From an uncultured Parachlamydiaceae bacterium (GTDB lineage: Bacteria > Chlamydiota > Chlamydiia > Chlamydiales > Parachlamydiaceae): DNA of 64,000 bases. The position numbers were made by a program, and so were the translations under genes. Below, piece by piece: positions 62,972 to 63,455 of the stretch. Location of the stretch: the NCBI GenBank assembly GCA_963752155.1, contig CAVVXH010000006.1:160001-224000 (forward strand), written 5' to 3'. Numbering within the stretch: the stretch's first letter is position 1; each line of letters begins with the position of its first letter. The notes beneath the pieces were generated by a model. It was not told the DNA's origin. It did not search any database and was given only the letters and a program-made list of their open reading frames with translations.

Positions 62972-63455
62972 ATTAGGGTATAAAGTATAGGAAAAATTAA
63001 ACGCTAAGCGAGACAGTTGCCTGCGGCGCCCCCTATCGGGAAATAACAGATTTTTAAAGCGCCTTGCCATTGGTGCCTGACCTGATATTCTGACATTTGC
63101 CTACAATGATAACGTAACCTCCCAGGAGGGCAAATGTCAGAATATCAGGTCTGGAACCAAGGCTAAACGTTACCTCTCAGAATTTAGTATCTTGTTATTA
63201 ATTGAAAACGACGCTTTTTTCAGTTGCGTAAATCTTGGGGGTAACGTTCCAGCCTTGGTTCCAGACCTGACATTCTGACATTTGCCCTTTAGGAAGCAAT
63301 GTTATCGCATCGGCAAATGTCAGAATATCAGGTCAGGCACCAATGGCAAGGCGCGAACTTGTTATTTAGGAGGCATTAGAGTAGGGGCGGAGATTAACCC
63401 GCCCCTACTCTAATGCCTTTGTGTTTAATTTTTCCTATACTTTAATACCCCTAAT
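62972..63455. mobile_element. Composite nested palindromic element, copy D (most complete)
   Basis: Outer ~35-bp imperfect inverted repeats (62972.. and ..63455), 288-bp core 63063-63350 flanked by GCGC, plus GTAG hairpin. Confidence 0.88.
63371..63418. repeat. GTAG-type REP-like hairpin
   Basis: aggcattagagtaggggcgg-8 nt-ccgcccctactctaatgcct, perfect 20-bp stem containing GTAGGGGCG/CGCCCCTAC. Confidence 0.8.

Follow-up and report, generated by a model that had tools for sequence, protein, structure and literature searches.

A mosaic palindromic repeat family in a Parachlamydiaceae genome has a core formed by the terminal inverted repeats of a TIRYT gene

The closest described systems are the TIRtrons and the REPIN or BIME repeats. 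In the available text of Di Nocera et al. (2013; PMC3733652), TIRtrons contain a Y1 HUH gene (TIRYT), whose product has a DnaA-like carboxy-terminal helix-turn-helix (HTH), together with long inverted repeats. The terminal inverted repeat (TIR) families described there are moderately abundant and are also dispersed as dimers or clusters. The nearest gene classes are RAYT group 1 (PMC5581495) and TnpA-Y1 subclass 2.1.2, which the accessible part of Quentin et al. (2018; PMC6006769) equates with the TIRYTs of Di Nocera et al. REPINs and BIMEs are non-autonomous hairpin doublets that accompany a single-copy RAYT gene (available portions of Bertels and Rainey, 2011, PMC3116915, and of 10.1101/2021.07.10.451892). 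In the same portions they form higher-order clusters and are targets for insertion sequences, and insertion of repeat into repeat is known, unrelated REPINs being found inside or beside each other. Support for repeat spread by RAYT-like proteins is, in the available text of PMC5581495, only indirect. Two further systems are relevant: GxxExxY (PF13366) genes are flanked by inverted arrays of short units, and IS-derived MITEs have terminal inverted repeats and target duplications.

The repeats described here were recognised in a window of 64,000 nucleotides (the whole stretch of DNA that was analysed) from a Parachlamydiaceae genome of 3.13 Mb, 80% complete (G000). A first-pass annotation, made from the sequence alone, had described a palindromic element of several nested layers. 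Its four copies, A to D, and the related fragments in the window are as follows.

62942..63008, plus strand: left frame arm of copy D, an arm of the GxxExxY-linked repeat family
63004..63040, plus strand: frame module between outer arm and slot, containing a small G+C-rich hairpin
63041..63058, plus strand: left slot edge (left part of the originally annotated layer 2)
63059..63062, no strand: GCGC, a self-complementary extension of the inverted end
63063..63350, no strand: core of copy D, 288 bp, four TIRYT-type inverted-repeat units in the order outer-inner-inner-outer
63066-63100, 63130-63163, 63252-63285 and 63313-63347: core units of copy D
63101-63129 and 63286-63312: core spacers; 63164-63251: core loop
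63242..63244, plus strand: TAA target of a nested MITE, empty in copy D; filled and empty alleles are known
63351..63372, plus strand: GCGC and right slot edge, which elsewhere leads into the beginning of a GxxExxY gene
63373..63416, no strand: GTAG...CTAC hairpin, one of several frame cargos
63417..63455, minus strand: right frame arm of copy D, directly next to the stop codon of a gene for a zinc-binding dehydrogenase
10975..11346, plus strand: copy A, bounded at both ends by the left slot edge and lying immediately upstream of an RHH-like/PemK pair
37441..37830, minus strand: copy B, with the right slot edge on both sides
56449..56960, minus strand: copy C, with a 75-bp MITE at 56588-56662
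10010..10263, plus strand: frame fragment continuing into another repeat family (the type flanking the second Y1 gene described below)
23330..23752, plus strand: paralogous frame fragment that follows the second of the giant DUF3638 genes

The core was correctly described at the outset as 288 bp with four 23-bp units of alternating orientation (at 63079, 63129, 63264 and 63312), and composite copies do lie near 11.0, 37.5 and 56.5 kb in both orientations. Few copies have the full form, which combines both outer arms with the GTAG hairpin. The outer inverted repeat, given as about 35 bp, matches at 35 of 39 columns (62972-63008 with 63417-63455), but the left end of copy D lies at about 62942, the conserved frame continuing past 62972. 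The GTAG hairpin assigned to this outer layer is present in copy D but has only four copies in the genome, every one within the frame and none in copies A to C. Two paralogous giant DUF3638 genes also occupy the window (70-10017 and 11465-23332; 3315 and 3955 aa). A frame fragment comes after each of them, and the RHH-like/PemK pair lies between the two. An RND efflux operon (window 29310-34422) and an SRP54 gene (43013-43540) seem broken into pieces.

BLAST with copy D against G000 identified 245 loci. A census of the units gave 411 in 146 clusters: 65 tetramers, 61 dimers, 17 singles and 3 others (copy A is counted here owing to a 1-bp deletion in one unit). A few clusters are counted twice because of an exact inverted duplication on contig C7 (C7:1055-26179, flanks 100% identical), which may be a biological or an assembly feature. 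Clusters with at least two units number 129 of the 146. The unit pattern matches 400 times in G000, compared with 0 for a reversed control, and is present in 14 of 73 genomes of the family, being abundant in G000 (400), G045 (83), G001 (79) and G002 (20). Among the matches listed in the genome collection, 30 of 36 unit-bearing stretches are titled Parachlamydiaceae. The composite was not matched in metagenome contigs, viral contigs or plasmids, and two DNA runs of one sample (share 0.07) gave only repeat pieces and one weak joint; no RNA run was listed as containing it. Literature searches returned no description of this repeat family in chlamydiae, nor of four-helix-bundle repeats, nested REPIN/MITE elements with target deletion, GxxExxY genes with repeats (the two terms meet in one unrelated paper) or a TIRYT-GxxExxY mosaic; subscription journals fell mostly outside their coverage, and supplements of the cited papers may list chlamydial TIRs.

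Amplification is recent, because copy D is matched at 98% identity or better by 20 of the 45 cores whose loop has no insert. The outer-inner-inner-outer order is found in 62 of 65 tetramers, and the tetramers of the sister species G001 and G002 have the order and spacing of those in G000 with unrelated spacers and loops. Divergence among 59 cores of G000 is 0.3-0.7% in the arms, 7-8% in the spacers and 3.3% in the loop. Across species, the arms are 77-100% identical compared with 12-52% for the spacers and loop. Whole spacers or frames have often been copied onto the opposite side (for example, the left frame is on both sides in 13 of 65 tetramers). None of 38 point variants in the arms is mirrored; symmetrisation is seen for whole blocks only. 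Some dimers have two outer units between the two frame edges, and a collapsed core at C11:161131 retains both GCGC; these look like deletion products. An AAV-like flip-flop of the side hairpins was rejected, as no spacer is flipped alone in the 65 tetramers.

The identity of the core is well supported. A profile search for Y1 transposases found two genes in G000. One of these, at C10:596682 on a different contig from the window, is intact, encodes 341 aa and has a core on both sides. The core consists of four copies of this gene's terminal inverted repeat, and the genome has a single copy of the TIRYT gene. The protein matches PF01797 (E = 1.3e-13), and its residues H63, H65 and Y122 (the HUH and catalytic tyrosine motifs) are invariant among eight homologs. 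Its model resembles TnpA-REP (4er8; TM 0.76 on the target) and DnaA domain IV (1j1v; TM 0.86, rmsd 1.8), and residues 224-326 match TIGR00362 with E = 7.5e-4, below the cut-off. Sequence and model fit a TnpA-Y1 of subclass 2.1.2, with an HUH nuclease and a DnaA-domain-IV-like helix-turn-helix. The arms flanking the gene are 97-100% identical to those of copy D. The corresponding identity between the gene-flanking and the amplified cores is 68-69% in the spacers and 47% in the loop.

The association recurs in related genomes. Inverted repeats flank 9 of 10 TIRYT homologs, the tenth having only 52 bp upstream, and the repeats of G012, G035 and G045 agree with the G000 unit at 18 of 19 bases. Read by eye, most of these repeats have a G-rich head followed by a tandem 7-8-bp unit. 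The G000 unit has five of the eight positions of the GGGGWSAS motif, the homologous TIRs of G012, G035 and G045 have the motif, and other TIRs lack it in the available text of Di Nocera et al. G045 possesses both the TIRYT gene and its 83 unit matches. No TIRYT match was found in G001 (99% complete, 79 unit matches) or in G002, so that the repeat family persists there, or once spread, without a gene now visible. The TIRYT protein tree was unresolved and gave no sign of co-evolution between protein and unit.

The other Y1 gene (C11:40743-41348; 201 aa) scores over the NF047646 RAYT cut-off and has its own repeat arrays of GGAGTGC type on either side; these arrays are also found as cargo, both in the frame and in core loops. 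A 70-bp perfect palindrome with head-to-head GGGGTCA motifs is found in different MITE shells at C1:107190-107260 and in G002 (L090). It may be the repeat of another TIRYT.

The locus shares with TIRtrons, as far as the available text of Di Nocera et al. describes them, the Y1 HUH motif, the catalytic tyrosine, the HTH and recurring long inverted flanks, as well as the dispersal of repeats in dimers and clusters. It differs from those TIR families in its abundance (411 units), in the tetramer of fixed order kept across three species, in the frame drawn from a foreign family and in a unit that departs from GGGGWSAS. With REPINs and BIMEs, in the available portions of the papers cited above, it shares non-autonomous extragenic doublets and arrays beside a single-copy RAYT-like gene, higher-order clusters, insertion of repeats into or beside each other and use as a target by insertion sequences. 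Unlike REPINs, the core units have no GTAG tag at their foot (only the nested four-copy hairpin has one), the tetramer and foreign frame form a composite of about 0.3-1 kb, and one insertion replaces target DNA. The composite is an unusually elaborate variant of TIRtron/BIME-type repeats. The first-pass annotation had allowed for a match to a family already described: the core does fall into a known class, the TIR repeats of TIRYT genes, and no Rfam family matches at gathering score.

Our preferred reading, to which we give a probability of about 0.62, is a BIME-like mosaic of non-autonomous palindromic DNA mobilised by TIRYT. We infer the enzyme and its chemistry as follows. The HTH domain of TIRYT would bind the 8-bp repeats that lie in tandem within each unit; the enzyme would nick single-stranded DNA folded as a long hairpin, and would copy the core plus a variable stretch of the neighbouring frame. 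Copying with a variable frame would lead to ragged ends and to integration without duplication, once with loss of target DNA. Slippage and template switching within the palindrome could delete part of it (giving dimers and collapsed cores) or copy one half onto the other, and copies would survive mainly just behind stop codons. The genome provides a cognate gene-repeat pair in which the repeat has reached a very high copy number, a defined candidate binding unit, a pair of empty and filled sites and a series of nested insertions that orders events.

The layers around the core have a different affiliation. In G000, the core occupies the slot of another repeat family, one with arms on either side of GxxExxY nuclease genes, and in the sister species G001 and G002 this slot takes other cargos. 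The outer arm has 64 genomic matches, with a consensus running on outward; in most of them an array of GCACAAAG type comes next instead of the core. The frame module at 63004..63040 has 119 matches, with the core next to it in 98, and G001 and G002 have the module without a core. Other cargos lie between slot edges of the type at 63041..63058 in G001, in G002 and also in G000, so that layer 2 of the first-pass annotation is real as a slot. One pair of outer arms encloses a GxxExxY gene at C6:157328. At C4:110655 the right slot edge leads into the beginning of another such gene, as it does at C4:39500, where the gene is internally deleted and has frame arms around it. Inverted flanks accompany 19 of 26 GxxExxY loci (the best matches, four of them with short flanks) compared with 1 of 300 control ORFs.

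These data bear on the rival that survives best, in which mobility of the frame comes from a GxxExxY PD-(D/E)XK nuclease and the slot took up the TIRYT core on a single occasion, as a passenger. Frame-only copies are common (21 of 119 left-frame and 38 of 96 right-frame matches), the GxxExxY family has 14 matches in G000, and 186 of 246 core ends lie, with GCGC, in the GxxExxY-linked frame, the framed form being the amplified one in this genome. However, the core is also found in a second frame (23 core ends) and bare, many copies retain almost no frame, and in the only copy with an informative empty site the core is complete but the frame is cut short at both ends. Moreover, the two frame-linked GxxExxY genes each seem damaged at one end, and no function of GxxExxY proteins was found in the literature search. 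We consider this rival unlikely. The same tentative standing applies to a chimeric element that combines the recognition ends of the HUH TIRYT with those of the PD-(D/E)XK GxxExxY, and that would replace its target without duplicating it, rewrite the 3' ends of genes and be able to carry a foreign gene between duplicated frame arms. If true, it would be a gene-shuffling vehicle in an intracellular bacterium. Frame without core and core without frame support the earlier view of a non-autonomous mobile family with independent layers.

Arrays of a 9-bp ACGATAAGA type, in inverted orientation, were also noted in the window (27169-28037) and at L003 and L007-L012. An intact GxxExxY gene at C10:276731 lies between such arrays, as do many gene fragments, and the arrays themselves are nested in two further palindromic families. 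G035 has 67 GxxExxY family matches, many of them near-identical carboxy-terminal fragments, a candidate for a recent burst of a GxxExxY element.

The ends of the composites are ragged. Matching of left-frame ends to copy D stops at 47 positions (114 ends); 45 of these 'ends' are at three positions (57, 63 and 72), and many are switches to another frame module, modules being swapped at common motifs. A search for empty sites among paralogs yielded a single informative one for the 146 clusters. Here (C8:60590), a 484-bp composite stands in place of 65 bp (22 codons) of an HTH-peptidase M78 gene; contig C19 carries an intact paralog of this gene. There is no duplication, the flanks are 97-98% identical and the junctions have short matches. 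A second deletion lies near this pseudogene, so that the target loss possibly occurred after insertion. Copies B and D are missing at the orthologous sites of G001 and G002. An orphan gene of 180 aa (C6:131956-132498) lies inside the frame between 23-bp direct repeats; a paralogous site 5 kb away is without it, which fits gain as well as loss. The gene has no Pfam family over the cut-off and one marginal relative in 72 genomes.

Such junctions could suggest that no dedicated enzyme operates now and that host recombination or repair copies repeat blocks into breaks or other repeats by microhomology. The 65-bp replacement, the ragged ends, the module swapping, the gene between direct repeats and the persistence of the G001 family without TIRYT would all be in keeping with this. 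We nevertheless regard it as improbable, since the arms are about ten times better conserved than the spacers, which indicates sequence-specific recognition, and G045 combines many copies of the unit with a cognate TIRYT.

The first-pass annotation had proposed a landing pad for effector and toxin-antitoxin genes. The orphan gene is one cargo in its favour, but no enrichment was found: expanded gene families (a proxy, not an effector annotation) lie beside elements in 25 of 209 cases compared with 87 of 1014 (p = 0.15). A search for cargo genes in the core loops showed that the largest loops contain other repeats, and a single loop of 487 bp is without an ORF of 100 aa. The position relative to genes is biased. 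Of 137 gene 3' ends, 60 have an element end no more than 30 bp away, compared with 5 of 105 5' ends (p = 8e-13), and composites are between convergent gene pairs in 35 of 121 cases compared with 169 of 955 (p = 0.004). The description 'always intergenic' is too strict: none of 126 composites is wholly inside an open frame of at least 150 aa, but one copy interrupts a gene and 17 of the 126 supply the stop codon of an ORF. Copy B, for example, gives a sodium:solute symporter gene its last codons and stop. These repeats thus alter gene ends and break genes in a chlamydial genome.

This bias, together with the folding of the element, raises the question of whether it is kept as a structured RNA, a terminator or an mRNA-stabilising 3' element. 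Copy D folds with -171.6 kcal/mol (z = -24.9; none of 100 shuffles was as stable). Of the two proposed forms, the long hairpin is by far the more stable (-115.7 kcal/mol, compared with -79.0 kcal/mol for the cloverleaf). Across 11 sequences, the long hairpin is 96.8% paired and the cloverleaf 86.1%, with fixed mismatches. Nine pairs of the long hairpin are changed on both sides, a covariation count inflated by the kinship of the 11 sequences. However, almost all pairs are Watson-Crick, as for DNA inverted repeats. The AT-rich loop, annotated as conserved, is so among recent copies only; its identity falls to 47% with the TIRYT-flanking copies and to 12-28% with other species. A conserved structured RNA is not supported, because the arms are conserved across three species but the loop and spacers are not. 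We read the constraint as acting on a DNA unit recognised by a protein and not on RNA. In addition, the sites are not common to the species at either of the two loci checked, and Rfam gave no match at gathering score in the window, its 24 sub-threshold matches being mostly to miRNA hairpins. Maintenance in any of these roles is very unlikely; a secondary effect on transcripts is possible.

Small MITEs with true target duplications have inserted into the hairpin, and the filled composites recur at many unrelated sites. One MITE occupies the same core site, with a TAA duplication, in 15 copies. Of 16 free copies, 13 have identical 3-bp flanks, as do 13 of the 15 nested ones (26 of 31 paired), and the nested element (54-160 bp) has the ends and duplication of a DDE-type MITE. 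The use of one site by all nested copies suggests that the MITE inserted once and was then multiplied along with the composite, and is the best evidence that composites move whole. Movement as a composite, as originally proposed, is likely, composites having been amplified together with their inserts. The accompanying idea of growth by successive insertion holds in that further elements do insert, but many forms look like deletion products. A further element of G000, with an 8-bp duplication, lies in a loop already replaced by another family, and a G002 tetramer carries an independent MITE. We take the 3-bp TWA duplication to be IS5-like and the 8-bp duplication to be IS1595-like. The nested elements are passengers; no cognate transposase was identified for them, a PF01609 search of G000 (80% complete) giving three weak matches, the best in foreign-looking DNA. 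At the start of contig C5 (L179; C5:202-3501), many open frames with a high content of Ala, Arg and Gly overlap, and a transposase is present. This differs from the host, and the stretch is probably foreign DNA or a chimeric join.

GCGC had been regarded as a 4-bp target duplication of the core. The 4-mers flanking the core are inverted in two other contexts (GCAT..ATGC at the TIRYT gene and TAGC..GCTA in the second frame), and cores of relatives are without GCGC. It is better read as part of the inverted end; being self-complementary, it does not strictly exclude a duplication. A search for the predicted empty site did not find the exact frame but gave one match within eight mismatches, and the near-empty frame at C21:105049 resembles the prediction. 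That each layer is a DDE-type MITE, as first annotated, is highly improbable: GCGC is self-complementary, the C21:105049 frame is nearly empty and other layers are such MITEs, but core and whole composite have ragged ends, inverted 4-mers and no duplication (none flanks the outer arms), near-empty frames can arise by deletion, as the collapsed core at C11:161131 shows, and no Tn3 transposase was found. The outer arm presumably resembles the 38-bp terminal repeat of Tn3, with its 5-bp duplication. A Tn3 derivation was rejected: the consensus runs on outward, eight pairs have no duplication and there is no PF01526 match.

G000 contains at least eight palindromic repeat families. Its DNA outside long ORFs amounts to 743 kb, and 655 repeat islands take up about 127 kb of this. 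Another dispersed composite, some 650-750 bp long and with ACGATAAG arrays inside it, is found at C7:60808, C11:319000, C15:119000 and C21:92300.
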